A stretch of DNA of 64,000 nt from Rhizophagus irregularis (Eukaryota), in the NCBI RefSeq assembly GCF_026210795.1, contig NC_089431.1, positions 4,092,001-4,156,000 on the forward strand, written 5' to 3'. Below the pieces are notes generated by a model, which worked only from the letters and a program-made list of their open reading frames with translations, searched no databases and was not told the origin of the DNA. A program made the translations under genes and the position numbers. Each line of letters begins with the position of its first letter. The first letter of the stretch is position 1. This document shows, piece after piece, positions 27,737 through 60,810 of the stretch.

Positions 27737-29329
27737 ACTGCGTGTGTCTTATAGCGATTTCTCCTGATAATTTGTAGATCACTTCTATATGGAAATTCAT
27801 TCTGAGTTCAGTCCTTGTTAAATATTAAGTAATTTATCAAAAATTTTTGTACAGATCAACCTTATTTCGTAAAAAATTTGATCGACCATGGGCGTAATTA
27901 TTTCAGATAATACGGCATTAAGGCGGCGAAATGATGAAATATATTGCATCAAATTTCTGTTCGATGATTCATATGAAAATAATATTACACTGGTATGCCG
28001 AATTGGGTGTAATGTGCCGTAATATTTGGCTTGAACCTAGTAACTCAATAAGCACGAATAAATAACAGATGATTACAACTATTATATTAAAATATTCTGC
28101 GTAAAAAAAAAGCTATTATTATGTTTTTTTTCTTTTTTTGATAAACCAGGTTTAACTCTTTTTTTGAGTGACTTTATCACAAATTTATTTGCACGGTATA
28201 ACTGATATACTTCTTATATTATATAGACTGAACATAATCCATTTAATTTTTTTTATCATTTATTATTATTGAAAATACCTAATGATTTCTATAAAATTTT
28301 AGTATCGATAAAAGAAAGTACTAATAATAATTCTTTCTAAACCGAAATTTTTTTTTATTATTTTTAAATGAATTCAAAAAAATAAATAATGTTGATGATA
28401 AAAAATTCTCTCCTTGCCTTTTTCTTGATAAATAAAAAAATGAAAATTATGCCAACTTCGATACTTGTTAAAAGTTTACGAAAAAAAAAAATATTTCAGA
28501 ATTTTTAAGATAAAAATTTTTTAAAAATAAAATGTTCATTTGCTACTATTAATAAAATGTATTAATAATAAATACATTTATTTACAAAAAATAAATTGAT
28601 GATTAAAAATTTCTTAATATTACATGATTACAATTCCCTTTTGATTAAAAACTGGATATAGTAAAATTTTTTATTCATTTATTCAATTTGTTAATAAATT
28701 TTTTAAAAATATACTTCTTTTATGGATCTTAAAAATATTAAAAAATTAAATCACTAAATTTTTCTTCAATTATAGACTTTTAATTTCAATTTTATTATTA
28801 AAGTCATAAACGTTCTTAAAAAAGGGATTTTCTCAAAATAATCTAAAACGTCTCCCTATCAATTTATTAGATTTAAAATTATTCGATTTCGAAAGAATCT
28901 AAAGAATCTATGAATAAATTATTAATTAAAAATTTATTCATTCTTAATTGACTAGAATTTAATATCGTCGTATTTTAATTCATTATTAACAATTTGTTGC
29001 AAGAAAGTATAGAATATTTCAAAAAATAAATAAATGAACAAATGATAAACATAAAATTGACTTTTTACTATCGAATAATATAACTACGGTTAAATTCTAG
29101 AATTTCCGGCTCCTCTAATAAAGGAACTTGCAGTCGGCTCGTGCTACTTAAAAGAAACTAATATAATACTTTGAATGCGTACTTTCTTGTCAAATTGATA
29201 TCTATTAATGGCCTATTATAGGATATTCTCTTTGCTTACACTTGGATTAGGGACGCAATTTTAGTTTTATCAGTTAGATAGCTCAATCCCATAGAGTACC
29301 TCTTGATTGACACCCACTAAGAATGCATC

Positions 29330-29510
29330 TCTTTGGTCAAAAAAGAAAGACATAAAAAATGCGAATGTAATAAAATAAGAAAATCTTTTTGAAGGTCATC
29401 AGATTTGTCATACGTGTTATAAATCAAAAACAGTTTTTAAATCAAGTGGAAACAATGTTATTAAGGTTATTGATGATTTTATTAAATATACAAAGACTAA
29501 TCAAAATTAT
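29330..29510 (+). pseudogene. Kinase exon-1 relic (shorter copy at ~48520-48641)
   Basis: Reads CECNKIRKS..GHQICHTCYKSKTVFKSSGNNVIKVIDDFIKYT with a frameshift, matching the kinase N-termini. Confidence 0.65.
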
Positions 29511-29879
29511 TGTTATTTAAATAATTTTAAAGCTAGTACGTTCAATAATGCCAAAACCATTTTATAATTACTTTTTTTTTACTTTCATACTTCACATTTA
29601 ATTTCCTTACCTTCCATTTCTAATCGACTGTTCTTTTTTTTTAAAAAAAAAATAAATAAATAAAATATCTAATGACATACGAATAATATAGTACCTTATC
29701 ATTGCTAGCCTTTTTTGAAAAGCTAGATTTAGTAATGGCAAGTTTATGTTGTCGGTTGTCCTATATTTTTATGTTGACAAATAAAACATTTAATTTTACA
29801 TATAATAATTATTATTATTTTCATGATTTTTTATTAATTAATAAAATTATCAGTGTAGAAGAAAGAATAATAAACGAAA

Positions 29880-29957
29880 AACTTTAATAGTAATATCTTA
29901 GTATCGGCATCATCTAAAATCTTAAGTAAATTTTGCGATAATTTTAGTAAAAACTCT
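29880..29957 (-). pseudogene. BTB gene 5' relic
   Basis: FLLKLSQNLLKILDD..DITIKV matches the start of the BTB paralogues; disrupted. Confidence 0.6.
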
Positions 29958-31483
29958 AAATAAAAACATTTTTGTGAAATTTCAACTTTATATGAATGGA
30001 TATTAGTACGACTTGAAAATAAAATTTGTTTTACAAAAAGCCAAAGTTGATGATTGGCCTTTATGAATTGGTAAAAATAATAAAATAAAGAATGTAGTTT
30101 AATGTTGCTAAAGCACTAGTTATAAATGTAATAATAAATGTAATTACTAGATAAAATCATAAAACTAGTATTATTTTCAAAGTAATATTAAATTTATTAC
30201 AAAATAATCAATATGCAAATATATTACAGAATAGAATAGTAATTTCGTATTATTTATGTTTCAGTTATTTTATTGAATAATATTTGTAATATATTTCAAA
30301 ATAATCTATCTAATTAAAAAAATTTTGTCATATTTAGATTACCCTGTAAAAATAATTTGAATTGTGTAACATTGAAAAGTGTGATATTCTTGCGTTCGAT
30401 CTATTTCGTATTTATCATATAATAATTAACTGACTACGATAACCAATCTTTAAACTAATACATTTCGGATTTTTTATTATGATGGATTAATACTAACAAA
30501 AAAAAGAAAAAGTATAATTTTTCTTATTAATTGCATTTATTTGCGGTCATTTCCGCTCTCTTAGTTACCACGAACCATTTCTATAATAATAATTTTTTTT
30601 TATTTTTCAGTTTTTACCGTAAAAACCGAAACTACCTTTTTAGTCTTTTCTTTTATTAATTTTTTTATCCCTCTTTTTATCATTATTGTTTCTTTTGATT
30701 AACTTAACCATTTTTTTTTAGGAGATTTTTTTTTAATCGGAATTTATCAAAATTTTTGGAATTTTTTTTTAACCCAAAAAAATATAGTTTATTCTTTTTT
30801 TTGGTTTGGGTCAATACTATAGAACTATGTCCTACGGCTTTTCGATGTTTTAGTGAGATTTTTTAGTCAATGATATTGTTTCTGACTAATAAATTCGTGT
30901 GAAAATTTTTTTTTAGTGTGAACTTTTTTTTTGTTTATTGAGATTTTTTTTTCGATTTAGTGAGAACTTTTTAGATTGATTTTTTCAATATTATTTCCGA
31001 CTAATAAATTTGTGAAAATTTTTTAGTGAGATTGTTTTTAATTATACAGATATTTTGTAATTAAATCTATAATAAATTTTTTGATAAATCTATATAACTA
31101 AAAAAAACTTTATAACTAAAAAAATTTGTCTGACGTCTGGATTAGTCTCTGCATAAATAATTTGAATTGTGTAACTTGAAATCCCATGCCATATAATTAA
31201 AACCCGTGACATGCCTATACCTGATCTATTTATCCGTGTACATTCAATTTTTTTTTTAAATTTGAAGAAAAAAAAAAACTCTTTCCCCTTTCCATTTTTT
31301 CACATAGAAATCCGCAGTTAAATACTGTTTTTTCATTTACACCCCTTTTACGTTTTTAACGTTCGAGAAGAAAGAAGACCACTGGGTGGCTTCTTATGGA
31401 AAGGTTCTTCTCCTTATCACCCGACCTTTGAAAGAAGTTTTTATTATATTCTCACCTCATTTTTATATAAAATATATTAAAAT

Positions 31484-33385
31484 ATGGTTTTTACTTCTCA
31501 TAAACCTATCCCCTTGGGAAAATTTTCTTTCAACGTCTCATTCCATAAATTTCACGTGACTAGACCCAAACGGGCTGGATGTAACAAGATTTACGAAATC
31601 AGAAGATCAAAAAGTTTCTTTTTTGAGTTAGTTGATCCCTCAACAAACACCAATGATATTCATCTTAAAATACACACAAATGATTATCACATGAATTCTA
31701 CCCCTATTAGCTACTCTTCCACCTGTAGCTTTCCTAATCTGAAATTTCAGATTAGTAAGATGTTACAACATTTTTTTTCCCATCAAAAAGTTATTCCACG
31801 TTCCATCCAAAAGAAATATTTTAATCTTATTCGTTCAAATTTACTCGATAGATATTTTCTTGTCAAATCACGTGCTGATAAAGTCGCACAAAGAAATTCC
31901 CGAACAAAAACTTTCTTTAATTTTTCTTATAAACGTTATCGTTTTTATTTCGGTATTTTTACACCATGTAATTTTCTCACCAGTGATAATTCTGGAACTA
32001 ACCACACACAGATGTGTTGTGTCCCTTCCCCTTTCATTATGTCTTATAATAGACGCGCTTGCATCTCCCATCATAAAAATTTAGACATTTTTCAGAACAT
32101 CAAAAAACCCCTTCCGTTATCAACTAATAACGTAAATAATAAATGGCTTCACGCAACCCTTACTTATAAACAATGGCATCAAAATGTCAGAAAACACGTT
32201 TACTCAAATCGCCTAGGAATTTCCTACGATGTTTCATACTTAGCTAATGGACGCAATGTCCTTCGTACGAACAAGAACTTTCGTATGTACCGTAAACGAT
32301 TCGACAATTTTCTTTCACATCACTCCGACAGTAGTAAAAGGAGTAAAAGACAAAAATCCCGTTTTCAACGGGCATGTAGATCAGTTTTCCACGATCGTGG
32401 TAATAACGATAAATTCAACAGATATGCGGATACTCTTAAAGAAAAGCTTCACCGAGCTAAACATCAGTGTTTCCTATTTTTACCTTCACAATATATCAAA
32501 AAATCTGTACATCATTTAAAATATTATAAAAGACCATCCCCCCGAGATGAGAAACATTACAATTTTCCTATACCCGTTGGTTTAACCGAACCTTTAGATG
32601 CTAAGGCCGTTCTCGCCGAGGATCTTGAACCACCCCCTCGACCATATCCAGGGAACGATTCAATTAGTACTTCAAATTCTCACCTATCTGCCACCACCTC
32701 ACAACCCATTCTCCTCAAAGAAGAGAATACTTGGCATGATAAGTTGGGCATCTGGATTCCTAACGACCTCTTCCCTTATGTTACTGAAGAACCTGTTTAT
32801 ATTTCTAATAGACAGGCCAAAATTAAAGGTCAACAATATGAACCAGGATGTATATACTGGTTAAATGGTATTAGAAAACGTAAAGAAGCTCACGAATTAG
32901 CTGTACGATTACAAAAAGAACGAGAAGCTTGGGATGTTAACCGCCTTGCTCATGAAGAAGAACTCGCAAATAGAGCTAAGCTCTGGTGCACCTCCTCAAA
33001 CCGTGTAGAATATCGTGAAAACATGTGTAAAGATCTCACTGAATTTCAAGATCACTTTCACAAGAAAATTACCAAATTGACTGAACGCCGTTCCGTTCTA
33101 CATAACAGACTTACACAAAAAAAAAATGTTTACAAAACTAACAAACAATTGCTCCAACTAGAGCAAGAATTGGGTCTATTCAATATCGAATATTTTTCAG
33201 TCATGGATGACCGCGAGTCCCATTACCGTTACAAAGGACACACTTCAGATGACGCTAAACAACTCGAACTCAGACCACACAAACGTCTCCCTATCCCAAA
33301 TACAGATAGGCACATTACTGAGGTCAAAAAATTGAGACTAGATATACTGTCTCCAGAAGACTCTAAAGTCTTCGTTTTCCCTTAA
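31484..33385 (+). CDS. 633-aa basic protein of unknown function encoded by the retroposon-like element
   Basis: Intronless open frame; colinear similarity with the ORF pieces at 57006-60529 (FHVTxPxRxGxNxIYEIRRSxSFFFEL, NTNDIHLKIHTNDYHMN, SNRLGISY, MYRKR, TSDDxKxLExRPxKR). Confidence 0.85.
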   Translation: MVFTSHKPIPLGKFSFNVSFHKFHVTRPKRAGCNKIYEIRRSKSFFFELVDPSTNTNDIHLKIHTNDYHMNSTPISYSSTCSFPNLKFQISKMLQHFFSHQKVIPRSIQKKYFNLIRSNLLDRYFLVKSRADKVAQRNSRTKTFFNFSYKRYRFYFGIFTPCNFLTSDNSGTNHTQMCCVPSPFIMSYNRRACISHHKNLDIFQNIKKPLPLSTNNVNNKWLHATLTYKQWHQNVRKHVYSNRLGISYDVSYLANGRNVLRTNKNFRMYRKRFDNFLSHHSDSSKRSKRQKSRFQRACRSVFHDRGNNDKFNRYADTLKEKLHRAKHQCFLFLPSQYIKKSVHHLKYYKRPSPRDEKHYNFPIPVGLTEPLDAKAVLAEDLEPPPRPYPGNDSISTSNSHLSATTSQPILLKEENTWHDKLGIWIPNDLFPYVTEEPVYISNRQAKIKGQQYEPGCIYWLNGIRKRKEAHELAVRLQKEREAWDVNRLAHEEELANRAKLWCTSSNRVEYRENMCKDLTEFQDHFHKKITKLTERRSVLHNRLTQKKNVYKTNKQLLQLEQELGLFNIEYFSVMDDRESHYRYKGHTSDDAKQLELRPHKRLPIPNTDRHITEVKKLRLDILSPEDSKVFVFP

Positions 33386-33563
33386 CTCCTTTCGTATACA
33401 ACTATCAGCTTATAAATTTTTTATATATATTTTTTTTAGTGGCACGCTGATAGTTATAGACTTACACTCCTTCGCCACTTAATTATCATAAACTAGTATT
33501 TTATTACATCTTTTTTTTTTTGGGTAACCCCCACGTACAAATTTTATACCAATGTACAACAAC

Positions 33564-33641
33564 TAGAATAGTGTGAACCATTCCACCTATTACAGTATTT
33601 ACAGGTGGCGGTCTTGAATGACCGAAAGAAAAATACGGATC
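33564..33641 (+). ncRNA. Conserved structured RNA motif in the element's 3' UTR (copy 1)
   Basis: Nearly identical to the reverse complement of 56799-56875 except in one hairpin whose pairing is retained. Confidence 0.6.
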
Positions 33642-35296
33642 TCTTCTTTGTTCTTAGATTAGATTGTGCTAAAGCCTTTTCTTTGGTCCATTGGGATGTG
33701 ATGTCGTGTTAGGGACTCCTCCGGGTTTGTTAAAGGTACCAGAGTGGCGCTGTCCTCGGGCGGTTTGATTATAGCTTAGTATTAGATAGCGTTCGACTTT
33801 TGTTTTATCTTTTGTTCTTGTCTATCTTTCTGTAATCTTGTTCACGTGGTTTATAAAAATAAAAAATAAAATAAAATAATTTTTTTTTTAAATTTTTCGT
33901 TTTTTTATTTTCACACTAAAAAAAATTTTTCTCCCTTTCTTTCGGTTTAGTTTTTTTTTCAAACCGAAAAATTTGTTTTTTCTTATTCTTTTCCCGTTTA
34001 GGTTTAATTTTTTTTCCCAAACTGAAAAATACCAGAATTTTTTTCTGTTCTTCAGATTCCTTTTTTTTCGCAAATTTCCCTTTTTTTTGAACTGATTTCT
34101 TTCTTTATCCTTTTTCTCTCCCCCAAATTTATTTTTAAATTTTTTTTTTCCGTCTTTCAATTTTTTTTAAAAAAATCAATAACAACAATGTAGAAAGATG
34201 ATTAAGATTTTCAATTAAATTGAACGCTGGATAAATAGTTTGATTTTCAAGTTTAATTAATTAAAGAAATTGTTGATTTGATAATAGCTAAATAATCACC
34301 AGATTTTTGAATAATAATTTTAATTCAAATAGTTTAGTTAAATTAATAATTTATCGAATAAAATGAGTATCAAAAGAATAATAATAAAATGAAATGAACA
34401 GATCTCTAATACATTTAATTGTTCAAATATTTTTCCTAAGTTGATTATAAGTTTAAAATTGACGTAATATAAAATAATAAGAATTAATTAATTAATTAAT
34501 AAAATATTTGTAGTATTTTCATAATATTAAAATTTTTTCAAAAATACTTCTAAAAAATTAATCAATTTTTATTGATAATTATTTTTTCACAATTTCTAAT
34601 TAATCCGAATTTCACTCTAGTAGTACACTCAAACATAAAATCATTAATATAAATAGCTACATTATTCTAAAAATAATTTATTATTTATATCATTCTAATA
34701 TTATAAATATAATTTAATACATATTTTTTGTTACCTAATTGTTACCATATTAAATTCCTAATTATAAACAAAAAACTTCTTTAATTTACTTAGTATTACA
34801 TTACAATACTAAATCTTTCTATTTAAAAAACTCATTGGTCCCGGTGCGAAGCAACGGGTGACAACTAGTATATATATATATATATATATTAAAACCATAA
34901 AACAGGTCAGATTTATATATGTGAATCGGTGACATGCAAATAGAGACCACGTAAAATAAATATGATGAAAAGCGTTTACCTTAACAGAAACAATTATCTT
35001 GAAAAATTGCTTGCAGTAAAAAACATATTTCTTGTGTATAGTACAAACTAAATATATATATTAGTACTTAATACTTAAAAAAATTTAATGTGAAAAAATA
35101 ATGATTGCACTTTATTAAATATAACGGTAACTCTACATATTCGCATTCAAAATAAAATAAAAAGTAAATAATAATCTATATAATATAATAAAAAAATTCA
35201 TGTCGATCTTCTAACGTTTAGATTAGCCTGTATAAATCATCTTTGAATTGTGTAATGCATGATTCATCTGCGCCTAACAGTACTACTAATTATATA

Positions 35297-35926
35297 CTAG
35301 CAGTTACCCGTTGCTTCGCACTGGGACTAATGAGTTTGTTTAAATAGGCCAAGAACAATTTGGTATTACAGTCAAACCTTTATATAATGATATGTCGGGA
35401 CATATATGAAATTTTTAGAAAATATCATTATATCAATGGTATACCGATATTTATATGTCCTCACATATAGTGGGAAAATAAAATTTTATCGGTATATCAA
35501 GTTTTTAATAGTATATCGATATATCGAATATCGGTATATCGAGGTTAGACTGTATAATGTAATACTAAGTAAATTAAAAATGGTTACAGTTTTTTGATTA
35601 GTAGAATGATATAAATTATATTTAGAATGATATAATTATAGTGCATTAGAGTAATTAGTAAATATCTGACATGAATACTTATGAAAAGAGTACATAGTTA
35701 TAATAAGTATTTGTAATCAATAAATGGGCTAATTAATTTTTTTAATTTCAGTAATAAAATAGCAATGATTAGCAATTTGTATTAATGCTATAATTTACTG
35801 ATTAATGAATTTTAACCATAATAATATAGATCAAATATTTCAGGAGCAGACAGACCACCCATTACACAATTCAAATTATTTATACAAGATAATCTAAATG
35901 TTACAGAATTTTTTTAATTATATAGA
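35297..35926 (-). mobile_element. Nested inverted non-autonomous Helitron
   Basis: Minus-strand TCTATATAATTAAAA start at 35926; hairpin plus CTAG end at 35297; A/T insertion site. Confidence 0.75.
35369..35552. mobile_element. Tc1/mariner (pogo-type) MITE
   Basis: CAGTCAAACCT ... AGGTTAGACTG with TA flanks. Confidence 0.8.
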
Positions 35927-36133
35927 TGAACAGTATTTATGTATTTATGATATTAATTTAACTTACTTTAATATGTGCTATATAATGAAAAAATTATATG
36001 ATATATCATATGAAACAGAGATCAAAAATACAGATAAATAAACATTATATCATTATACAATTTTAAAATTTTTTATATGACTAATCTAAATATGACCCAT
36101 TTTTTTTAAATAATAGATAAAAGGGTTTAAAAT

Positions 36134-37480
36134 TTGAATGCACCTGCACCCACTCACGTGACATGATTTTAAAATTTTATTGGTGATAATCAATCTATTT
36201 TTTATTTTTTACTTTGTTTAGGAACGTTTTTTAATTACTCTTTTTTTGTAGGAATACCCTGAAGATGAAATGGACCCCTAAAAATAAAAGGTGTGTTTTT
36301 TTCAATTTTTTTTCCCATTCATTTCGTTCAAGAACAACGTTCCTAACATTCTTTCGTAATTTTTTTTTTATAGGAACACTCCCTGGAGACTCTTAAAGAC
36401 AAAAGGTAAAATTCTTTTTCATTTATATTTGTTAATTTCGTTTAAGAACATTCCTAACATTCTTCAATAATTTTTTTTTATAGGAACACCTCCTGGTGAC
36501 TCTTGGAGATGAAAGGTAAGTTTTCTTTTTTTGTTTCTTTTATTAATTTCATTTAAGAACATTTCCTAACATTCTTTGAATAATTTTTTTTATAGGAACG
36601 CCCCTGGTGACTCTTGGAGGCGAAAAGTAAGTTTCTTTTCGTTTCTTTTGTTAATTTCATTCAACTAAGGATGTTCCTAACATTCTTTCAATAATTTTTT
36701 TTGTAGGAACGTCCCCTAGATGAAAGATAAGTTTTCTTTTTTCGTCTCTTTTGTTAATTCCATTTAAGAATGTTTCTAATGTTCTTTCAATAATTTTTTT
36801 TTATAGGAACGCCCCTGGTGACTCTTGGAGACGAAAAGTAAGTTTCTTTTGTTTCTTTTGTTAATTTCATTCAAGGACGTTCCTAACGTTCTTTCAATAA
36901 TTTTTTTTGTAGGAACATCCCCTAGATGAAAGATAAGTTTTATTTTTTCGTCTCTTTTGTTAATTCCGTTTAAGAATGTTTCCAATATTCTTTCAATAAT
37001 TTTTTTTATAGAAATGTCTCCTGGAAACTCTTGGAGACGAAAAGTAAATTTCTTTTCATTTCTTTTGTTAATTTCATTCAAGAATGTTCTATTAATGTTC
37101 TTTTAATAATTTTTTTATAGGAATGCCTCCCAGAGACTCTTGGAGACAAAAGATTTTTTGTTTTCTTTTGCTAATTTTGTTTAAGAATGTTTCCTAACAT
37201 TCTTTTGATGGTTTTATAGGAACACCACCTGGAGATGAAATGGACTCCTGGAAACAATTAATAAATTTTAACAACAGAAAAAGGTAATAGAAAACAATAA
37301 GACTTATATAGTTATATCAGTTTATTAACTGTTTCAAAAAAAAACTTTAAAAAAGCCTTTTCATTTAAAAAAATTAAATAATGAATAAGATTATTTGATG
37401 AATAAATAAACGATAACACTGATCAGCCAATCAAATTTAAAATACAATAAATCACGTGATAGGGTGCAGTGTGCGTTCAA
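36134..37480. mobile_element. TIR-bounded element containing about 8 tandem ~120-bp repeats (36290-37250)
   Basis: ttgaatgcacctgcacccactcacgtga at the left is an imperfect inverted copy of tcacgtgatagggtgcagtgtgcgttcaa at the right; repeat core ttttttataggaac..ccctggtgactcttggaga. Confidence 0.6.
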
Positions 37481-37959
37481 GGTATTATTTTTATTTTTAT
37501 TTTAAGATGATTTGATCAGCAAATGCTAATTACTAAAGTATAAAAAAAATAATTTTAGTTCCCTATTACTGGCGTTTTGCTAATACTAATTAGTATTAAT
37601 CTCACTTTTTTAATCAATTAATATTTATCTCATTTGTTATTTTTTCAGTACAATTATTATTATTTGGTTAAATTGAAGTTTACAGATTTTTGCGAGATTA
37701 TATATTTTTTTTTAGTTGATTTAAAATTTTTCTTATACTTTTTTTCATTATAACATATAGAAAAAATTTTTGTAAATATATTTATTCAAAATAATCTTAT
37801 TTAATGAAGCAAATATTAAAATTTAAGCCTCACATTTTCGATTTTAAAGAAAAAATCACTGTATTTATTTTTAATGAAGTGATACAAATAAAAAAACAAT
37901 AACAATAAATAAAAAAGTTAAGTAAATTACAATGATCAAGAAGAAAGATGCTAATAAAA

Positions 37960-38330
37960 ATGAAGTAACAATGGAGTAATGGAAAGTAATAGAAGAAGAA
38001 AGGGAGTAAAAAAGAGTAATGAGAAATGATAGGAAACAAAAAGGAAAAATAGGACATGATGGATGATGAAAAAGAGTGATGAGAGATGAAAAGAAGTAAT
38101 GGGAAGATAAAGAGGAGTGATGAGAGACGAAAAGGAGACGAAGAGAGTGATTGGAGACAAAAAGGAGTGATGGGAAACGAAGAGGAGTGGTGAGAGATGA
38201 AAAGGAGCGATGAGAGACAAAAAGAAATGATAGGAAGTAAACAGGAGGAAAAAAGAAATAATGGAAAATGAAAAGATGTAATAGAAAATAATGGGAGACG
38301 AATAATGAGAAGTAATATGAGGTGAAAAAT
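37960..38330. repeat. GA-rich minisatellite (ggagtgatgRgagacgaaaa) inside the Helitron; second copy ~39200-39650
   Basis: Visible ~20-bp degenerate tandem units. Confidence 0.75.
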
Positions 38331-38344
38331 AATGAGACTTTACT

Positions 38345-38560
38345 TTGAATCAATGTCAATTTCCAGTATGTGTTACATTCTCAATAACAATTAATAAATC
38401 ACAAGGGCAAACTCTGAGCAGGGTTGGTGTTTACCTACCTGAACCTGTCTTTACACATGAGCAATTATATGTTAAGGTTTTTATAGATAATGGTGAGAAC
38501 TGCAAGACAAGAAACATTGAATACTGTGAAATATTTCATTCTATAAATAGATTTCACATT
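38345..38560 (+). pseudogene. C-terminal fragment of a Helitron PIF1-like helicase
   Basis: [34 protein letters not shown] ... TRNI.Y.EIF; the ALSR segment of motif VI is deleted. Confidence 0.85.
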
Positions 38561-40315
38561 TAAAAATAACATTTTGTATGTATAACAATATTTCATATGT
38601 AATATTTTATATATAACATTCATACACAATTCACTTTTATTAGTATAAATATGTAAATTATATAAATTTATTAGATTATTTTTATCATACTGTAAATAAT
38701 ATTATTAAAATACTAAGCCTATTTCTAAAATATAGCCATACCATTGTTACTTTTCTTGACAAGTTTTATCCCCGGCGCAGCGCGACGGGTTACACCTAAT
38801 AATATAATAAAAAAATACATGTCGATCTTCTAACGTTTAGATTAAGTCTGTATAAATAATCTTGAATTGTGTAGCATGATTCAGTGCCTGATTTAAACTT
38901 AAAAGTTAAGGCCATTTATTTGATCGGCAAACAACTAGATTTTTTTAACTTAGCTAATTTTTATCGGTTAAACAAAATTTTATTGCGAAGATATTTTTAA
39001 AAAATTTTTTTTTGCAAACATATTTATTCAAAATAATCTTATTAAATGAAATTTTTTAAAATTTAAGTCCCACATTTTCGATTTTAAAGAAAAAAATCAC
39101 TGTATTTATTTTTAATAAAGTGATACAATAAAAAAAACAATAACAATAAATAAAAAAGATAAGTAAATGAATTAATCAAAAAGAAAGATACTAATAAAAA
39201 AAATGAAATAACAATGGAGTAATGGAAAGTAATAGAAGAAAGGGAGTAAAAAAGAGTAATGAGAAGTGATAGGAAACAAAAAGGAAAAATAGGACATGAT
39301 GGATGATGAAAAAGAGTGATGGCAGACGAAAAGGAGTGATGGGAAGATGAAGAGGAGTGATGGGAGACGAAAAGGAGTGATGAGGGACGAAGAGGAGTGA
39401 TGTTGATGAAGAGGAGTGATGGGAGACGAAAAGGAATGATGAAAGATAAAGAGGAGTGATGAGAGACGAAAAGAAGTAATGGAAATGAAAAGAAGTGATT
39501 GAGAGACAAAAAAAATGATGGGAAGTAAATAGGAAAGAAAATGAAATAATGGAAAATGAAGATGTAATAGAAAATAATGGGAGACAAATAATGAGAAGTA
39601 GTATAAAGTGAAAAATGATGAGAGACAAAAATAAAAAAGTGATCATGAGGAAACAAAGTAAAAAATAAACCATAAAGTAAACAAAAAATGAAGTTAGTAA
39701 GAAATGAAATATAAGATAAAAACGAAATAAAAAAAATAAAAAAAATAAAAAAAATACCTTTATTAATTGTAGAACTGAAAGAACTAAAATATCTGAAAAA
39801 AAATAAAATAAATTAGTGAAAAACGAAATATAAAACAGAAACAAAATAAAAAATAAAAAAATGAGTAAGAAACGAAATGTAAAGTGAAAAACAACTGAAC
39901 CTTACTGGAAGAACTAAAGGACCTAAAAATGATGAAATAGAATTAAATATGTAAATTATATAAATTATATAAATTTATTAGTCTAACCTTACCATATTGT
40001 AAATATTTATTATCAAAAAATACTAAGAAGTTTTATCCCCGGCGCAGCGCGACGGGTTACAACTAGTTTATAATAAAAAAAAATAAATAGTAGTGCAAAA
40101 TCCACATTGTCGAATAAATATAAAGTAAAATAAACAACCGAAAAATTTAATATGCTAGTAAAAGTTATGCAATCTAAATAAAATTTAGTACAAAGTAATT
40201 TCAGGCAAATATTAAGTTGTTTGTAAAATTTGAACACATATTATTATGCCAATTGAAGTTAATATTATAGTAATGTGAAAAAAAAGAATAAATAATGATC
40301 GATAAAAAATGATCG

Positions 40316-41142
40316 TCATTCCGCGAATACACATGCTGCGAGTACTGATACTGCTTCTTCTTCTGAAATTCCTATTATTGCTGTGTTGATTGAAGATACG
40401 CCTGTCATATTAATCATAAAAAAAGATTTAATAGTCTTCAGAAATATATGATCTGTGATATCTAAAAGTTTTCACTCACCTTCAACTTGAGCTGCTACCC
40501 CCATCTCGTTTGCTATCATTTCTATAGTGACCACTAGAGTGAGAAACAAAAATAAAATATTATATATATATATATACCTATTTAACTATATCTAAAAGCA
40601 AATTTTTTTGGTAAAATTCAAAATTGTTGACGCACCTATTGGTTGTCCTCCAACTCTAACTACGAATATAACGAATCATAATTTAGTCTTAAATCACAGT
40701 ACATTTGAATTACATATTCTAAACATCATAGTAAAATAATTTTTTTACCTCCGTATCTAAGCGCATTCGCTATTTTGTCTGATAACCTATACACTGCATT
40801 CGAAGATAATTTATCCATACTTCTAAAAATGGCTTGCTCAATTTTTACTGGATCGAACGCTTTAAGAGCATCAGTGAGTCCTATGTCTTTAAACCGCCAA
40901 CCAGAGTTCCTTCCTGTCCTAAAAGTTTTCAAGGCATTTCCGTACAATTGTTTTAAGCCAGAAAATGTCTCAGCACCTACCACATACTGTGGAATCTGTA
41001 TTTCCATATAAGGGCCGATTACATCCCAATCTCTCTGATACATGAGAATGTCTTTAAAAATTTTCGGAATTGAATAAGATTCTGCTGTGGTTAAGAAACC
41101 CAGGGTTAATGTGAGAACTAGCATAAGGGTAAATACACGCAT
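40316..41142 (-). CDS. Small secreted protein, candidate effector, copy A (exons 41142-40749, 40659-40636, 40533-40480, 40401-40316)
   Basis: Signal-peptide-like MRVFTLMLVLTLTLGFLTTAES; three frame-preserving GT-AG introns conserved in copy B; ~185 aa. The 3' exons are inferred. Confidence 0.78.
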
Positions 41143-42364
41143 GACTGATGGTGTTCTAGATAACAAAATAGATAGTATTTCTGTCACAATTCGCAAATAA
41201 ACAGAGAGACTAAAGTAAAGAAGTTAACTTTGCATTTCAAAAATTTCAAAATTAGAGATTATTTTATACATATCCTCAAGAAATTAACCATGGGAATCTA
41301 TATCAAATTAAGTTCTAAGTATCATACTCAATAAAAAGTAAATGAGTTAGCGAAGGGCATCATACACATGCAACACACGCGCAAAAATTAAAGAAAAGAA
41401 AATAAAATGAAAAAAAAAAATTATATACAAAATGAGCTTTTCATTTCAATTTCTATTAAATTATCACAACCAATTCATGACAGCTGATCCGGTATGGAAG
41501 AATTTATTTAAAAAGAATTTATTTTAAAACAACCCTTTCTAAATATCCCGTACCGTATTGTAATGATAGGTCGATCATTGATCGATCAAGTATCCGAATA
41601 CGTCTTTTTCTGTTTCTTCGAATGGTAAAATTGTCAGGAGATCGATCAATTAAGGTAAATAACCGGTCAAGACATCTGTACCCAGAAAAGATCGATAGGA
41701 GAAAAATGAAACCGTATCGAGAAATTCATCCAGAAATTCGAACCTATGGATGTGTCCGCTTTCAATGAAGTTAATAAAACTTGTTCGTCAGGTTACCTGA
41801 TATTTCGCAAGAAAAAAATAAAAAAGCTGATCCTACGAAGTAAGTCAAAGAAGGCGTAAAATGGGCTTGGACGGATAAAGAAGTAGATGACGCCAATGAA
41901 TGGGGAGTCAAGCCGGAGCAATAACTATGGGACAAGTATAGAAGAGAGAGAAAAAGTTAGCTCAAGTAAGGGTAAGGATAGTAATAAGTAGGGTTAGCGG
42001 AATTTCTAGATAAATACGCAGTGTAATTAGTTAGTTATTTGTATGATGTTAGGCTAGGTTTAGATAGTTTCGTAGCAGTATAAAAGTAAAATCTTGGGAA
42101 AATTTTATCATAAACCTATTCCCGTTACGGCACGATTTCCCGACATTCATTATCCCGACGATAAGTATCCAAAAAGACAAAATCCCGACATGACATTTTC
42201 CTGAATTCAATTTATGAAAATATTAGCTTTGGTTTTGGGTATATAGTATTTAACAGTAATACATTATAAACCGCAATTTTAAAATTTTTTAAATTAGTTT
42301 TATTGATAATAAAATATTGTTAATAGCTGCTTTATTAATTGAATTTTAATTTTATTAAAGGTAT

Positions 42365-44750: not shown

Positions 44751-46420
44751 AAGAAAAAAATCTTTATAAAATAAAATTCACCAATACTGCAATACATTTT
44801 TTATTATAAAAATTTACTAATAAAAAAAAAATATTTTACCAATAAAATTTTTTGTTAAAATTTTCAAAACTCTTCAGACAAAAAAAATCTTATTAAAACT
44901 TCTAATAAAATTTTTTATAAAAAAAAAATCTTTTATATTTAAAAAAAAAATTTTTTTTAACAAAATTCTTTACCAAAAGATTCTCTAATAAAAATTTTTA
45001 CATAAAAAAAATAAATATTTTGCTTATTTTAGCAAACTGTTTATACTTTAAGAAAATTAAAAAATACTATATAAATATTAAAATTAAAAATTGAATAAAA
45101 AAAATAAAATTAAAAAATCTAAATTAAAATGCTATAGTAAAATATATAAAAGGTTATATATGCAAATTTTTATTATAACATTTTATTTTATAATCTTAAA
45201 TTCTTTTAATTTCTTATTAAAGAAAAATCTTTATAAAAATAAAATTCACCAACACATTTTTTATTATAAAAATTTACTAATAAAAAAATATTTTACCAAT
45301 AGAATTTTTTGTGATAAAAATCTCATTAAAACTTTAATAAAATTTTTTATATGAAAAAAATCTTATATTAAAAAAAAAATTTTCCAATAAAATTCTTTAC
45401 CAAAAAATTTTTTTATAAAAGTTTATATATAAAAATAAATGCTTTGCCTATCTTAACAAACTATTTACATTTTAAAAAAAATTAAAAAAACTATATAAAT
45501 ATTAAAATTAAAAATTGGATAAAAAAAAAAATAAAATTAAAAAAGTCTAAAATTAAAGATCAAAAATAACTCTAGTAAAATATATAAAAGGTTATATATG
45601 CAAAATTTTATTATAATATTTCTATTTTCAAATTCTTTTAAAGAAAAAAATCTTTATAAATAAAATTCACCAACACATTTTTTATTATAAAACTTTACTA
45701 ATAAAAAAATATTTTACCAATAAAATTTTCTATAAAAAACTTTCAAAACTTTTCAAATAAAAAATCCCATTAATATTTCTAATAAAATTTTCCAACAAAA
45801 TTCTTTACCAAAAAATTCTCTAATAAAAGTTTCTATATAAAAAAAAATAAATGCTTTGTTTATCTTAGCAAACTAATTGCATTTTAAAAAAATTAAAAAA
45901 TAAGAAATATTAAAATTAAAATTGAATAAAAAAATAAATTACGAAATCTAAAATTAAAGATTAAAAATAAAATTAATAAAATATATATATAAAAGGTTAT
46001 ACAGTCAAACCTTGATATAGCGAATCCTTGATATAGTGAATTTTTCAGACAACTATAATAAATTTCCCCTCGCTATAATGAATTAACCAATTAAATCTCT
46101 TAAAATCTTCACTATAGTCTTATAGCGAAGTTGAGGTCTGGACCCTAGGGTTCGTTATAACAAGGGTTGACTGTATATGCAAAATTTTATTATAACATTT
46201 TATTTTATACCTCAAATTCTTTAATTTCTTATTAAAAGAAAAAAATCTTTATAAAATTTTTTTATTATAAAACTTTACTATTAAAAAAAATATTTTATCA
46301 ATAAATTTTCTGTTAAAAACTTTCAAAACAAAAAAAATCCCATTAAAACTTCTAATAAAATTTTTTATAAAAAAAAAAATCTTTTATTAAAAAAAAAAAT
46401 TTTTTCAACAAAATTCTTTA
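44751..46420. repeat. AT-rich tandem repeat, ~420-470-bp unit, about 3.5 copies
   Basis: Unit start aagaaaaaatctttataaaa at ~44751, 45220, 45641 and 46236. Confidence 0.75.
46002..46173. mobile_element. Tc1/mariner (pogo-type) MITE
   Basis: CAGTCAAACCTTG ... CAAGGGTTGACTG with TA TSD; sibling repeat units show the empty site ggttatatatgcaaa. Confidence 0.9.
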
Positions 46421-49007: not shown

Positions 49008-50149
49008 TCTATATAACTAAAAAAAACTATATAACTAAAAAAATTTGTCTGACGTTTGGATTAGTCTCTGCATAAATAATTTGAATTGTGTAACTTGAAA
49101 TCCCATGCCATATAATTAAAACCCGGGACATGCCTCTACCTGATCTATTTATCCGTGTACATTCCAATTTCAGTTAATGAAATTTTACCTTAATCGGAAT
49201 TTTTTTTTTTAAATTTTTCGTTTTTTTATTTTCACACTAAAAAAAATTTTTCTCCCTTTCTTCTTTCGGTTTAGTTTTTTTTTCAAACCGAAAAATTTGT
49301 TTTTGAAAAATACCAGAATTTTTTTCGGTACATTTTTTTTCAGTTTTCTTTTTTTTCGAAAATTTCCCTTTTTTTGAACTGATTTCTTTCTTTATCCTTT
49401 TTCTTTCCCCCAAATTTATTTTTAATTTTTTTTTTCCGTCTTTCAATTTTTTTTAAAAAAATCAATAACATGTAGAAAGATGATTAAGATTTTCAATTAA
49501 ATTGAACGCTGGATAAATAGTTTGATTTTCAAGTTTAATTAATTAAAGAAATTGTTGATTTGATAATAGCTAAATAATCACCAGATTTTTGAATAAAAAT
49601 TTTAATTCAAATAGTTTAATTAAATTAATAATTTATCGAATAAAATGAGTATCAAAAGAATAATAATAAAATGAAATGAACAGATCTCTAATACATTTAA
49701 TTGTTCAAATATTTTTCCTAAGTTGATTATAAGTTTAAAATTGACGTAATATAAAATAATAAGAATTAATTAATTAATTAATAAAATATTTGTAGTATTT
49801 TCATAATATTAAAATTTTTTCAAAAATACTTCTAAAAAATTAATCAATTTTTATTGATAATTATTTTTTCACAATTTCTAATTAATCCGAATTTCACTCT
49901 ACACTCAAACATAAAATCATCAATATAAATAGCTAAATTATTCTAAAAATACTAATTTATTATTTATATCATTCTAATATTATAAATATAATTTAATACA
50001 TATTTTTTGTTACCTAATTGTTACCATATTAAATTCATAATTATAAACAAAAAACTTCTTTAATTTACTTAGTATTTTACATTATAATACTAAATCTTTC
50101 TATTTAAAAAACACATTGGCCCCGGTGCGAAGCAACGGGTGACAACTAG
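49008..50149 (+). mobile_element. Non-autonomous Helitron, uninterrupted copy
   Basis: TCTATATAACT ... hairpin CCCGGTGCGAAGCAACGGG ... CTAG/T. Confidence 0.82.
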
Positions 50150-54297: not shown

Positions 54298-56798
54298 TTA
54301 TTTCAATGTGCATTTTTCTTAGAAATGATTTTGACTAATAAGTTATAAGTGTACTACGTGCTAAACATTAATATTGAATCAATAACATGTTTAATTTATT
54401 AAAGTAATATAGTTAAATTTTTATAACAAATGTATTTTCGCATTTTTTATTTTTATTTTTATTTTTATTATAAAATAATAAAATAATAGCATTATTATTT
54501 TTTTTTGAAATTCTATTATTATATTCAATAAACCTAAGAGAAATTTCGAGAAAGAATTTTTCATTGAAAATTTAACTTCTCTAGTGTTACACGACATGAT
54601 ATTTAAAAAGTGATTTTTTAACTTTAAAATCCACCTAAGGTTTTCACTCCAAAGATAATCTAGGATATATAGTTTTAATTTATGTATACAATGTTTTTCA
54701 TTATAGTAGAACATATAAATATAAATTTAAATTTAAAAACGATGTCAAAAAGCTAAAAAAAAAAAATTTACATTTTAATTGACATAAAGGGGACGGCTGG
54801 AAAACACTAGTTGGATCAGCGTTATCGTATAATACATATATTACGTAATTTATTTATTTATTTTATGTGACATATATTACGTAATATCGTCTTATTATAG
54901 CACCCCAGGTAAGATATCCTGATCACATGTATGTAGACCATTTCCCTTTATGAAAATCTTATTAAAAAAAACGGGTATTACAGAATAAAAAAAGGATTTA
55001 TTAAAAAAAATTTTTTTTTTAAGTACGTTCAAATTCACATTCTTAAAATTTTATTTTCATAAATTTTCTATCGTTTTGCTTCAAAGATGAATTCTGTGTG
55101 TGATGAAAGTTAATTATGTGAAATTCTGTGATTTGGCCAGAATTATGCAAGGTCGAACATCGATTCACAAAATTTGGCCAAACTTAATGTCGGCCAGCAT
55201 TATGATGATTGCATATCGCGAAAATTATGTGAAATTCTGGGAAACACAGAAAATCATCGTCCCTGGCCCCCTAAAATATTACGTAATATATGTCGGCCCT
55301 TATCATAATTCATAAATGATTGATATTTTGTGTGACATGCGTTATCCATAATACATTAATACAAGTATTACAAAATTTCCCCCGTTATACCAGATTTTCA
55401 TATCACGTTAACGAATTTTCTTATAACGTTATAAAAGTGAGTAGACTACTGCGTTATTTTTATGATTATCTATCTTTAATCTAACACAGCCACTACTACT
55501 TTTCTTATAAGGTTAAGCAGATAGTGGCTGAAACAGCAAAGAATTTTTACATTTTACTCGATAATTCAATAAAAGACCTTTATGCTTTAGGGAAATTCAA
55601 AAAAATTCACAAACTCGAAAAATTAAAAATCCAGAAACAATAAAACCAAAAGGTATGATTTGTTTCAAATAAATATTTTAACAATTTTTATTTTTAATTG
55701 ATAATCAAGGATACGTTTCAAAAAAAAAAGAATCAAAAAATGGGATTGAAACTACTAGGCCTTCTAAAAGGACTGCATTAACATATTAACATCTCGTCAA
55801 TAAAATACATCTCAGGATAATGAAGAAGAAAAGGAAAATACAACTTTTTTTAAAAAAAAATTCCAAATTTTATTTGTTAATCAGTAAAAGAAAACGATCC
55901 AATAAATTTGTTACATTCAAATATTTTACTATTTATATATTAATTAAAAAAAAAACAATTTAGGTAAAGAAGATAATTTATTGATATGCCACCTTCTTCT
56001 TCAGGTTTGTTACTTTTTTTGAGAAAAATTAAATATATAAAAAATACAAATACTAATGCTAAATTTAATTGGTAGCAAAAGTCCTTTTTATTCGCTATTC
56101 TCTTCCATAAAGAATTCGCCTTTTATTAAATAAAATCGCAAAACAAAATGGGAAAAATCGTTAAATAATTAAAATAAATTGAATTAACAAATTTAATTTT
56201 TATAACAGGTAACCCTACACAAGAAGATCGCAAGTTATTTTGTGAAATTCACTATTATGAAACAAGAAGAAAATAATTTTTAATATATTACTTTATTCTT
56301 TATTAAAAATAATTCGGCCTGTTCTTAGTTATAAGGGGATAGTTTGGGGAAATCTGATTTATTAGATAAGAATGGTTGTATTTAAAAAAATTTTCTTAAG
56401 TGAATAAATAAAAAAATAATTTTTTCTTTGTTTAAAGTATCGTGTGGACCAATTCTGAGGGGTACAGGTCAAGAATCTGTAGGTAATAGGCTATATCAGG
56501 GTACAGGTTAGCGATGCTCTAAGCTAAACTTTGAGATCGTATTTATTTATTTATTTATTTTATGTGAAGACGGACAGACTATTAACAGGACATATACGTA
56601 ACCGTGCTATCCTACTTCTAGCTATCATCCCCCCGAGGACGGACCCGAACTTCTTTAAATCCAACGAACCAGGATGATCCCCTCCCCTACCAGAAAGGAA
56701 CCAATGAACCGAAAGAAAGAAAATGATAAAGGACACTAACAAAATATTAAGAAGTTGTGGCAATCTACACATTATAAATAGCAAAACAATCATAAAAT

Positions 56799-56875
56799 GA
56801 TCCGTATTTTTCTTTCAACCCATAGGGTCGCCACCTGTAAATACTGTCATAGGTGGAATGGTTCACACTATTCTA
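56799..56875 (-). ncRNA. Conserved structured RNA motif in the element's 3' UTR (copy 2)
   Basis: Homologous to 33564-33641 with compensatory hairpin changes. Confidence 0.6.
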
Positions 56876-58087
56876 AATTGTTTGGGTGTATAAAAAGTAA
56901 ACGTAATTGGTACATAATAGTACTACATATAAAAAGAAACTAAAAAGATGTAGAAAAATCTACTTGTAAAAAAAAAAAATTTGGTTAAAATAACCGTAAA
57001 AAAAACTAAAACTTAATCCGTGAAGGACCTGCAACTGCAGTAGTATCGACTGAAACTTCGGACGGACGATTCCGTTTGTGACGATCTTCATCTATATGAA
57101 AAAAATTGTTAGCAACTGACGCTGTATTGCGTTTCTTAGGACGATGTTCCAACTCTTTGGTGTCATCTGACGTGACTTCTTTCTTCTTTAATAGTTCTTT
57201 AATGAGCTTGTCTTTGGCTTTCCTTGATGATTGATTAAAGTTAACCCCGCTATTATAATATAGTTCAAAGGATTCCATCTCCGCATCGAGTTCTTCATGT
57301 CTAACGACATCTTTACCTTTCAGGTTTTTGGTAGTGAGATAATTCATTCTCTCATGAAAGTGTCTGGTTTTGCCTGTCAGCATATTACTAACACGTCTTC
57401 GGCGTGATAAGGTATGAACACTGGTGCCATGAAATCGGGCTTCAGCTTTGATCGCTTGTTCTTTTTGAAGTAATTCTCTTGTTTCTCTCTCGCGTTCTTG
57501 TGCCGATTGAAGCAAATAATTACGTTTTTGGCTAGTTGTAGCTGAAGAAAGCCTGCGATGAAGGTTGCTCATATATGTGAACCATGAACGAGACCCAGGC
57601 GTTATGTAATCTCCTGTATCCGTATAAAGAGGATCTTTAGGGATGATGTCCCTGTATTTATGAGGAATAAACATATCTGGATAAGGATCATATTCTCGAA
57701 CCCAAGGTTGGTTACTAAGGGGTGTTATAGAAGTAAGACGGTTGAATCCTTTAATAGTGGATCGACCAGCGCGGGAATCGTCGCGATTTGCTGTCTTGTA
57801 GTAGTGAGGCGTGCAAAAACCATAGTCCTCAGAGACTAAACTGTGATTATATATTAAATGTTTCACTGGTTTGTTGACGTATTAAGATTTTAGATACAAA
57901 AAACGGTATCGTTGCGCTGCACGTAACCTATGCCTATTAAGGTCAGGAATATTTTGCTCTTTAGTTTTAAAAACTCGTCTACATGCTCGAAGGAATCGGG
58001 TTTCCTGCTTTTCTTTAACTTTGAGATATTTCGATTGCTTGAGTTGAAAATCAGTAAGACGTTTTCTATACATATGTTTATTACCGT

Positions 58088-59465
58088 TGTAGCCATAGAT
58101 ACTGGAGTAATCGCATAATATGGAGGAATAATATGGAATAAAAGATCAAACGATAGAAAGTCACATGATGGGATAAAATTAACCGGAAAGGATAAACTTT
58201 TAGGAGAAGGAATGATCTACATGATGTAATGTTTATTAAATGATTAACGGAGAACCAATAGATCAAGTGGGGAGTTGATTGATGTGGCTTAGCAACCAGT
58301 TTATCAAGTTCAACAATAGGAACAATTAGGAGGAGTAATCATAAGCCACAAATGGTAAATCATATAAAAAGGAAGGATAGCGAATTAAAGGAACAAAAAA
58401 AAATAGGAACATGTAAAATATTGATGAACTGCAGCCGCAGTAGAAGAATAGCTGACGAGACGCAGTAGAAAAGATAGCACAGCCACAAAAGATGAATCTT
58501 TACGATATAATATTTGAAAGATTATTTTATTTTAAAGAAAAGATAGCACAGCCACAAAAGATGGATCTTTACAATATAATATTTGAAAGATTATTTTATT
58601 TTAAAGAAAAGATAGCACAGCCACAAAAGATGGATCTTTACGATATAATATTTGAAAGATTATTTTATTTTAAAGAAAAGATAGCACAGCCACAAAAGAT
58701 GGATCTCTACGACATAATATTCGAAAGATTATTTTATTTTAAAGAAAAGATAGCACAGCCACAAAAGATGGATTATATCTTTACGACATAATATTTGAAA
58801 GATTAATTTGAAGAAAAGATAGCGTATTAAAATAGTATAACATATTAGAAAAGATAATATATAAATAGCATATAAGATAGCGCATAAAAGATAACATATA
58901 AAATATTAGAAAGAAATAAGAAGTAAGAAAAGAAAGAATAAGAAAGTTGGTTTAAATAGGAGCGGAATGGGAGGTGAATTCCACAGTCGTTAGATACGAT
59001 GTAAAACTTTAAGTAAATTAGTTAATTGTGAATTTTATGAAGAATAAATAAAATACCCTTTATATGAAAATTAATTGTTTCAATTGTTTTTGTTACTATT
59101 TTCTTATGATGAAAAAGTAATTTTGTTTAATTAATTGTTAGTAAAGCGTAATGTTATTTTAAAGGTAATAGGTTCGCCCTAAACTTTACTGTAATGTTCG
59201 CTTAATTAATTTTAATTGGACAAATTCATGGTGAATTTAATGTCATAACAAGAATTATGAAATGAATAAAATATAAACTTTTGTAAAGAGAACTATCGTA
59301 TTTTGAAAGAAGATAATGGATGAAATATCGTGGCGAGAGCTATCGCAATTTGAAAGTTAAGTAGTAATAGAACTAAACCAAGCAAGAATGTTAATGTTTC
59401 GCTGAGAGCACATATAACAGAAGCAGGGAACTTTGTTTACCGCCGGGTGGCAGACGGGGGTGACA
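58088..59465. mobile_element. Solo-LTR-like insertion (1378 bp)
   Basis: TGT...ACA termini (TGTAGCC vs TGTCACC on the opposite strand); 4-bp TSD CCGT at 58084-58087 and 59466-59469; no credible coding capacity. Confidence 0.82.
58468..58823. repeat. 69-bp tandem repeat, about 5 copies, inside the LTR-like insertion
   Basis: Unit gaaaagatagcacagccacaaaagatggatctttacgatataatatttgaaagattattttattttaaa. Confidence 0.95.
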
Positions 59466-60810
59466 CCGTATTCTAAAACAGATTGAACATCTCTAGCGTG
59501 TATCGCTTCTTGATATGATATACCTAGTCTATTTGAAAAGACTGATTTTTTCGTGCGACCTTTCCATCGATCGTAGATTAAATTGGCATGAAAAGCTTTA
59601 CTATTAACTATGCCATCAGGATTGGAGACAGGATCTTTTGATTTGTGATGTAGTATATCACTAAAAAATTGTCGTTGATGCATAACACACGCTCGTCTAT
59701 GTTTCGACATGACAAAAGGAACAGGTATATTACATATATGCGGGGTCGAAGAGAATCCAGGGTGAATAAAACTTTGTTGACAGGGGGTATATATCCCAAA
59801 ATGAAAACGATATCGTTTATAAGTAAAATAGAAAAAAGTTTTCGTAATACGATTTCGTTCAGTATTACTATGATCATGTGAATAGACCATCATATGTCGA
59901 GCCAATAATTTATCTCGTATGTAGTTAAAATATTTTTGCTGAATACGGCGTGGCAACACTCTTTGTGAGGAAAAAAAGTGTGTGAGCATACAACTCATTT
60001 GGTATTTAGCGTTCGGAATTGTACTTGTGTTATTATAACTAATCGGTTTAGTGTTCATGTGGTAATCATTTGTGTGTATCTTGAGATGAATATCATTGGT
60101 GTTCTGAGGATGATCATCTAACTCAAAAAAGAAACTTCTTGAACGTCGGATTTCATAAATCCTGTTATATCCGGATCGTCGTGGAAGAGTCACGTGAAAT
60201 TTGGAAAAAGAGATCTTCAAAGGATTATTTTTCCCAGGCGAAGAGGATTTTTCTATAGTACGAATAGGCCTTAATAAACGTGGACGTTTTTTCCTTTTTT
60301 TCTTTTCAATAGGTAATATCACCGGAGGAGAAGATATCGTATCCTTTAAGGGTGTAGGAGGTGTAACAGGAGCTCGTGAGGGTATTGGAGTAATGAGAGG
60401 GAGGTTAGAGAAGTCATTCTTATTCTCATAACCGGAGTAAATATCTCTGAAGTCCGCGGCGTCTGCTCGCGGAAAGCCTGACATATCTTGGGTGTTGTAT
60501 GTAGGAACCAAAACCTTGGATACGACCAAGGCGCCCGGTTGGGCCTCTATCCCCTTGGCGTTTCAAATAGAAACTAAAAAAAACGAACTTTGCAAAATTA
60601 CTGCGGAAAACTAACAAAATAAAAAAAAGGGGAAAGAGTTTTTTTTTTTTAACTTTGAGATCGTGACCTCATGTGGCCTATTCCGATATATTATCTAATG
60701 ATAGCACGTGATTTAAAACAGATGTTTTAAAACAATTTAAATCAGTTGAAACATTGATTGGCATAACCTTTTTTGTAATTTTAAACAACCTTTAGTTTTT
60801 TTAAAATTAT

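Follow-up and report, generated by a model that had tools for sequence, protein, structure and literature searches.

The window analysed here is a stretch of 64,000 nucleotides (64 kb) from Rhizophagus irregularis (contig NC_089431.1, positions 4,092,001 to 4,156,000), and it contains two elements, E1 and E2, each of which carries an open reading frame (ORF) of the DUF8211 family, begins with the same 5' terminus, ends in an A-rich tail and is flanked by a target-site duplication (TSD) (Table 1). A first-pass annotation of the window had described the two as insertions of one protein-coding, retroposon-like family without a reverse transcriptase (RT), and the sizes and duplications on which it built were recovered in our analysis: E1 and its TSD were found as described, E2 measures 2728 bp without its nested insert (about 2730 bp had been given), and the TSD of E2 differs in sequence from that of E1. 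The expectation of one intronless ORF per copy was borne out for E1, with its 633 intact codons, and only in part for E2, in which the frame is broken by the 1378-bp insert and by an in-frame TAA at 57882-57884.

Table 1. Positions of E1, E2 and associated features in the window
Feature	Position	Strand	Remarks
E1	31264..33877	+	full-length, intact ORF, 2614 bp
E1 5' TSD	31246..31263	+	18 bp, low complexity
E1 3' TSD	33878..33895	+	18 bp
E1 5' terminus	31264..31318	+	GAAG, A11, CTCTTTCCCCTTT, TCCGCAGT; common to E2
E1 ORF	31484..33385	+	intronless, 633 aa, DUF8211 family (PF26638, precomputed annotation)
E1 conserved 3' core	33564..33641	+	invariant stem, variable hairpin, possible pseudoknot (predicted)
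E1 A-rich tail	33853..33877	+	(A)nT units
Paralogous site without E1	49165..49216	+	in duplicated block
E2	56541..60650	-	full-length, other subfamily than E1, ORF disrupted
E2 5' TSD	60651..60664	-	14 bp
E2 3' TSD	56527..56540	-	14 bp
E2 DUF8211 ORF	57006..60484	-	698 codons (read through with X), interrupted by insert and stop
Nested insert in E2	58088..59465	-	1378 bp, TGT..ACA ends, 4-bp TSD ACGG
E2 conserved 3' core	56799..56875	-

Insertion sites and shared ends

The two TSDs are specific to the insertions. The 18-mer AATTTTTTTTTTAAATTT occurs twice in the window, at 31246 and 33878 only, and the 14-mer ACGATCTCAAAGTT is found within it only at the two flanks of E2; the latter repeat is complex, so that it cannot plausibly have arisen by chance. 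E1 lies in a segmental duplication (29219-42371 versus 48411-52774, 88-96% identity), and the block at 29219-42371 has gained E1 and several further insertions relative to its duplicate. The empty site that had been placed at about 49200 holds in its main part: this duplicate lacks E1 and has the target sequence once, though with one base different and with 34 extra bases directly upstream. This paralogous site supports insertion of E1 without being a clean empty site. The insert nested in E2 holds about five internal 69-bp tandem repeats and has no second copy in the window, and we infer that it is similar to a solo long terminal repeat (LTR). Neither a third family member nor an RT remnant was found in the window.

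E1 and E2 are most alike at their ends. At the 5' end, which had been described as common to both copies, E1 has 11 A after GAAG and E2 has 12 A, both then followed by CTCTTTCCCCTTT...TCCGCAGT, and the local score between the two 5' untranslated regions (UTRs) was matched by 0 of 500 shuffles. A G precedes the A-run in E1, in a copy from the public sequencing run X1 and in the metagenome locus L001, and is absent from E2; it is a speculation that the A-run marks the true transcript start and that the G is derived from the cap. At the 3' end the expected A-rich tails are present in both elements and are of the (A)nT type. Strong similarity at this end is confined to about 77 nt, where 67 of 77 positions are identical (87%) in elements whose proteins share 36% identity; in the remainder of the 3' UTR 101 of 185 aligned positions are identical, a score reached by 11% of 500 shuffles. 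No terminal repeats, LTR or terminal inverted repeats (TIR), are listed for E1 or E2, and the GC content of the elements is 0.36-0.37 versus 0.27 in the host.

The 3' core is predicted to fold into an invariant stem of 6 bp, a hairpin with GAAA after it, and a loop pairing of 6 bp that would form a pseudoknot. The hairpin stem differs in E1, E2 and a contig of run X15, and its pairing is kept by changes on both sides. Among the contigs of public runs X3, X1, X2 and X15, the core was found in 13, 13, 4 and 1, respectively; two of these contigs (2512 and 2696 letters) match the unit length, and the 21 listed of the 31 core-bearing pieces have at most 2402 letters upstream of the core. The DNA pattern of the core had 0 matches in viral and metagenome contigs. 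Rfam searches with E1 and with the 3' end of E2 gave chance-level rows only, with no viral element and none of the self-cleaving ribozymes that mark retrozymes or HDV-type retroposons, and no hammerhead core was found on the sense strand. Resemblances to hammerhead, hairpin and hepatitis delta virus (HDV) ribozymes in the 3' UTR were rejected by eye as incomplete relative to the consensus.

The DUF8211 family, its copies and its protein

A single-sequence search with the E1 ORF gave 93 matches, nearly all labelled PF26638/DUF8211, in which the named organisms were R. irregularis, R. diaphanus and Glomus cerebriforme only, homologues that point to R. irregularis as the host; a profile search gave 133 matches with the same named taxa among the 120 listed, and R. 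clarus was added by a further search. By hidden Markov model (HMM) search the family has 607 representatives at 50% identity (E<=0.001; 433 at 1e-10 and 180 at 1e-30), in agreement with the large family that the first-pass annotation had anticipated, and the best 150 of the 607 are all at most 697 aa long. The DUF8211 label, which stems from precomputed annotation and UniRef names (the Pfam scan itself gave no DUF8211 match), predates the first-pass annotation, was overlooked by it and assigns no function. The literature searched held no description of DUF8211 or of four member locus tags, and the terminal motifs of E1 and E2 are absent from the accessible part of the supplement text of PMC11075540. 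The element family is apparently undescribed so far, and the published repeat library may list it under another label.

Single-linkage clustering of the 48 proteins of at least 550 aa among the first 137 members yields 16 groups at 50% identity and 44 at 80%. In a midpoint-rooted tree without outgroup, built from 40 chosen proteins over 446 columns, R. irregularis and R. diaphanus are intermixed in more than one clade, G. cerebriforme forms one clade (support 0.98) and environmental proteins occupy the longest branches, which suggests that several DUF8211 lineages predate the species split. A metagenome protein scan that covered 31 of 64 parts found the family in at least one of 589 candidate stretches. 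L001 is a decayed member (51% identity) in which a motif of similar make-up, A-run/CT/TCCGCA, precedes the decayed ORF by about 490 nt. In this one case, a degenerate tRNA-like gene at 222-302 (-) of the locus lies upstream of the member on the opposite strand, about 125 nt away from its putative 5' end.

The protein encoded by E2 is 36% identical to that of E1 and 87% identical to P0023, an intact database protein of 698 aa. Over 229 aligned codons of E1 and E2, dN is 0.34 and dS is 2.4 (saturated), corresponding to a dN/dS ratio of about 0.14, and third codon positions are the least conserved; this shows purifying selection on the ORF between the two elements. Near-identical copies also exist at several loci. 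Three intact 698-aa proteins with the locus tags of one strain share 97.7-99.4% identity; in addition, a 522-aa sequence was recorded on 4 contigs and a 454-aa sequence on 3. Contigs from public runs X1, X2, X3 and X15 were compared with the window (rows of X5 are identical to those of X3 and were counted once, and runs X17-X24, whose share was small or zero, do not enter). One X1 contig (record 1) equals E1 from 31267 on and has 794 upstream letters unlike the window, and one X3 contig (record 18) equals 33690-33850 and continues with 1093 letters unlike the 3' flank in the window; therefore, the E1 subfamily appears at more than one site. Contigs of X1 and X2 cross the E1 tail into the 3' flank of the window, to 34236 and 34246, and this sequence past the tail (33878-34246) could represent read-through, making 3' transduction possible. 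Two runs recorded as RNA contain 31% and 25% of E1's words, and expression of E1 is suggested by runs guessed to be RNA. The family is best read as old and probably still active.

The absence of RT, apurinic/apyrimidinic endonuclease (APE), GIY-YIG and DDE signals, which had been noted for the two ORFs, extends to the family members scanned. Pfam families for RT, endonuclease, RNase H, integrase and transposase were found in 0 of the 137 members (52 scanned at E<=0.1 and 85 at E<=0.001), in which the sole strong match was a BTB domain in one gene model; the E1 and E2 ORFs gave nothing below E 0.9. Likewise, the patterns YADD, PD..D of the restriction-like endonuclease (RLE), GIY-YIG, DDE and gag knuckle occur in 0 of 137 proteins, and YxDD occurs 13 times in 12 of them at scattered, non-homologous positions. 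The 3622 candidates of 1109-3165 aa included no fused long homologue, which is weak evidence.

AlphaFold2 models the E1 protein with a predicted local distance difference test (pLDDT) score of 77.5 overall and 86.1 for residues 13-365, with an N-terminal region of beta-sheet and helices and long C-terminal helices. The isoelectric point (pI) is 9.9 for the whole protein and 10.4 for the basic N-region, in which no internal repeat was found. A C162-C178-C193-H196 pattern is kept in 49 of 60 long members, and the acidic residues E48, D51 and D67 together with H24 are conserved in the N-terminal beta-sheet domain. Foldseek searches at E<=0.001 found no match for the full model in PDB or in viral libraries, nor for the N-domain in PDB. 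VIA-align matched the full model to generic helical hairpins at 498-590 only (best Z 7.9, root-mean-square deviation (rmsd) 3.6, 80 residues aligned) and gave a best Z of 3.4 for the N-domain (rmsd 10.1, 70 aligned). A sequence search of PDB had a coiled coil as its best match (E 0.018), a search of the ESM Atlas with the protein gave no usable match, and a trimer prediction for residues 410-600 had a score of 0.00, which says nothing either way. Pfam and the PDB sequence search matched the protein to neither an RRM, a gag CCHC knuckle nor a known ORF1p, and the fold searches yielded no clear match; such blanks do not prove a new fold.

Proposed mobilisation and alternative explanations

Target-primed reverse transcription is well known to leave variable TSDs together with tails of short repeats. 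The elements have TSDs of 18 and 14 bp that differ in sequence, A-rich tails and asymmetrical ends, all of which fit a non-LTR retroelement, and an element without an RT of its own must borrow one. We suggest that the DUF8211 elements are probably non-autonomous non-LTR retroelements moved by RT and endonuclease borrowed from a long interspersed nuclear element (LINE) of their own host fungus. LINEs of six clades are reported from R. irregularis in the accessible part of PMC11075540. In this model, (i) the unit would be transcribed from an internal promoter with its start at the 5' A-run, (ii) the 3' core, which is probably structured, and the (A)nT tail would attract the LINE RT and provide the priming for target-primed reverse transcription, from which TSDs of variable length would result, and (iii) the basic DUF8211 protein with its predicted CCCH zinc site would bind its own RNA in cis, in the manner proposed for the ORF1p/Gag of HAL1 or HeT-A. 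A protein acting in cis on its own RNA would account for the selection that keeps the ORF in an enzyme-borrowing parasite.

Several observations weigh against this model. A donor LINE was not found in searches that covered no complete genome, pattern scans of viral and metagenome contigs were empty, and both junctions were checked for two insertions only, E1 and E2; of these, E1 has a duplication of low complexity, and the 34-bp indel makes its E1-free site an imperfect empty site. A 5' A-run is not known as a usual feature of LINEs. The 3' domain folds no better than shuffled sequences (z -0.71 and -1.72), and covariation, assessed on two sequences, does not exceed the control (125 of 500 shuffles). 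Invariant pairs carry no covariation information, and the change G33604A, which other members have, disrupts a pair in the invariant stem with no compensating change listed. RNA binding by the protein and its probable zinc binding at the CCCH site are predictions that draw only on its composition and its conserved residues. Finally, alleles or assembly redundancy may account for some of the identical proteins on several contigs, and for the fourteen runs from 4 studies that contain 97-100% of E1's words the RNA nature is only guessed.

It is well conceivable, if a little short of an even chance, that a Glomeraceae LINE has DUF8211 as its ORF1 and that the elements are internal-deletion derivatives of the HAL1 type, whose parent would combine this ORF1 and the shared 5' end and 3' core with an ORF2, a relationship that is compatible with a borrowed RT and would make the family one more case of a known type. 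HAL1, HeT-A and Ag-Sponge are precedents (PMC5786205 and PMC5753468, as far as accessible), the basic protein with its predicted zinc site and long helices would suit an ORF1, and a LINE partner of the stringent type would share the conserved 3' end. However, 0 of 137 gene models contain a fusion with an endonuclease, RT or RNase H, the longest of 294 family proteins examined has 854 aa, no RRM, gag knuckle or known ORF1p is recognised, the fold searches having yielded no clear match, six environmental contigs with ORFs of 505-746 aa span 2354-2870 letters and leave no room for an ORF2, and the 21 listed core-bearing pieces include no long contig upstream of the core. We tentatively entertain, with slightly less confidence, that the protein is not derived from any LINE ORF1 and is instead an RNA-binding adaptor of a new fold or a target-nicking enzyme, which together with a pseudoknotted 3' RNA captures a foreign RT. 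A further alternative, in which the ORF is a cryptic enzyme such as a target-nicking endonuclease and only the RT is borrowed, or in which the element is autonomous by an unknown route, is unlikely: the conserved E48, D51, D67 and H24 in the N-terminal domain and a confident model (pLDDT 86) without clear match would fit it, but the RLE PD..D, GIY-YIG, YADD and DDE patterns are missing from all 137 proteins, YxDD is scattered, and the top structural rows, with a best Z of 3.4, contain no nuclease or polymerase.

The first-pass annotation had left open whether the copies are retroelements or integrated cDNAs of an RNA replicon with conserved termini, be it a mycovirus segment or a satellite. 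Non-autonomous borrowing of a LINE RT fits all the data, and the replicon found no support and is in our view very unlikely, even though conserved 5' and 3' termini, an interrupted A tail, the GC content above that of the host and environmental contigs of unit length could be read in its favour. Viral contigs contain no relative, by DNA pattern or by protein scan (0 of 601 candidate stretches), no viral fold matched at E<=0.001 (BFVD), an absence that is weak evidence, and Rfam lists no ribozyme or viral element. Near-identical copies at multiple genomic loci and the varied flanks of E1-identical sequence point to amplification from genomic templates, and several lineages are common to different Rhizophagus species. 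Ordinary processed retrocopies of a host gene have, if anything, still less to recommend them. TSDs, tails and the absence of introns mark retrocopies too, but the 48 long members in 16 groups at 50% identity, several with near-identical recent copies of their own, imply many independent source copies, which is the pattern of a mobile family; moreover, non-coding termini are shared despite 36% protein identity, both copies in the window are full length, and purifying selection acts between lineages. Two further classes were rejected: an autonomous LINE of the APE or RLE type, given the absent RT and endonuclease domains and the length of 2.6-2.7 kb, and a short interspersed nuclear element (SINE), given the 633-aa ORF under selection and no Rfam match at gathering level.

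Relation to known elements and other features of the window

Among known systems, the borrowed-RT model is paralleled most directly by the ORF1-containing non-autonomous LINEs HAL1 (L1-derived), HeT-A (Jockey-derived) and Ag-Sponge (CR1-derived), as described in the accessible parts of PMC5786205 and PMC5753468. Like these, the DUF8211 elements have one non-RT ORF between conserved ends, an A-rich tail and presumed mobilisation in trans, and like HAL1 they have TSDs; they probably work in the way of HAL1, HeT-A and Ag-Sponge. In contrast, the three known elements have a known parent LINE and a recognisable ORF1p or Gag, neither of which was found here, and the 5' A-run of both copies is a further difference. 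Membership in the HAL1/HeT-A group is unproven because no parent LINE was found in searches without a complete genome and there is no resemblance to a known ORF1p. The EKA family of Blumeria graminis, likewise a biotrophic fungus, is a large protein family in a retrotransposon context with many copies without RT, but EKA copies are described as truncated or degenerate LINE ORF1s (PMC4641428, accessible part), whereas the DUF8211 copies are separate units of full length, each with termini and TSDs of its own. No similarity to EKA turned up in the search outputs, which included no direct EKA comparison. With SINEs of the stringent type, whose 3' end is common to the partner LINE, the elements share a short conserved 3' non-coding block and a short-repeat tail (PMC5786205, same part); unlike the non-coding SINEs, they measure about 2.6 kb and contain a 630-700-aa ORF under purifying selection.

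According to the accessible part of PMC11075540, R. irregularis genomes consist of about 30% unclassified repeats, and sequences were kept in the curated library of transposable elements (TEs) only if they had transposition domains; PMC8647823, as far as accessible, counts unclassified repeats and orphan genes among the open matters. DUF8211 elements would escape such a domain-based filter, and current annotation lists them as hundreds of genes labelled 'hypothetical' or DUF8211. Recognition as mobile elements gives this DUF a context, clears false orphan genes and makes the elements candidates for generating variation between strains of a clonal symbiont. The family also supplies a confidently modelled domain without a recognised fold. 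Should the protein turn out to be something other than a LINE ORF1, this would show that a retroelement can long retain an unrelated protein while borrowing its enzymes, and if the elements are an independent class, they would be a LINE satellite that has maintained itself and diversified throughout the Glomeraceae while escaping the notice of domain-based TE annotation.

Several other features of the window lie outside the two elements. Three 53-nt repeats, each a GC-rich hairpin followed by CTAG(T), are present at 34822-34874 (+), 35291-35343 (-) and 50103-50155 (+); two of them face each other 416 bp apart, and we take the repeats to resemble Helitron 3' ends. A remnant of a DDE_1 (pogo/Tc1-type) transposase lies at 43332-43985 (+) (E 1.2e-17). 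The ORFs at 40726-41142 (-) and 51118-51534 (-) are paralogous, encode 138 aa each with a hydrophobic, signal-peptide-like N-terminus and differ at clustered residues; the former has a weak ATP-cone match (E 0.0055), and the pair are possibly small secreted proteins. An ORF of 165 aa at 53800-54297 (+), which has no Pfam match, also has a signal-peptide-like start and has C-terminal cysteines. Tandem arrays with units of about 110 bp and about 170 bp are found at 36270-37260 and 46411-46997, respectively, and the tandem ORF clusters at 1907-26841 and 61734-62546 have, by eye, the appearance of kinase and BTB/TLDc-type genes, as is typical of Rhizophagus expansions.

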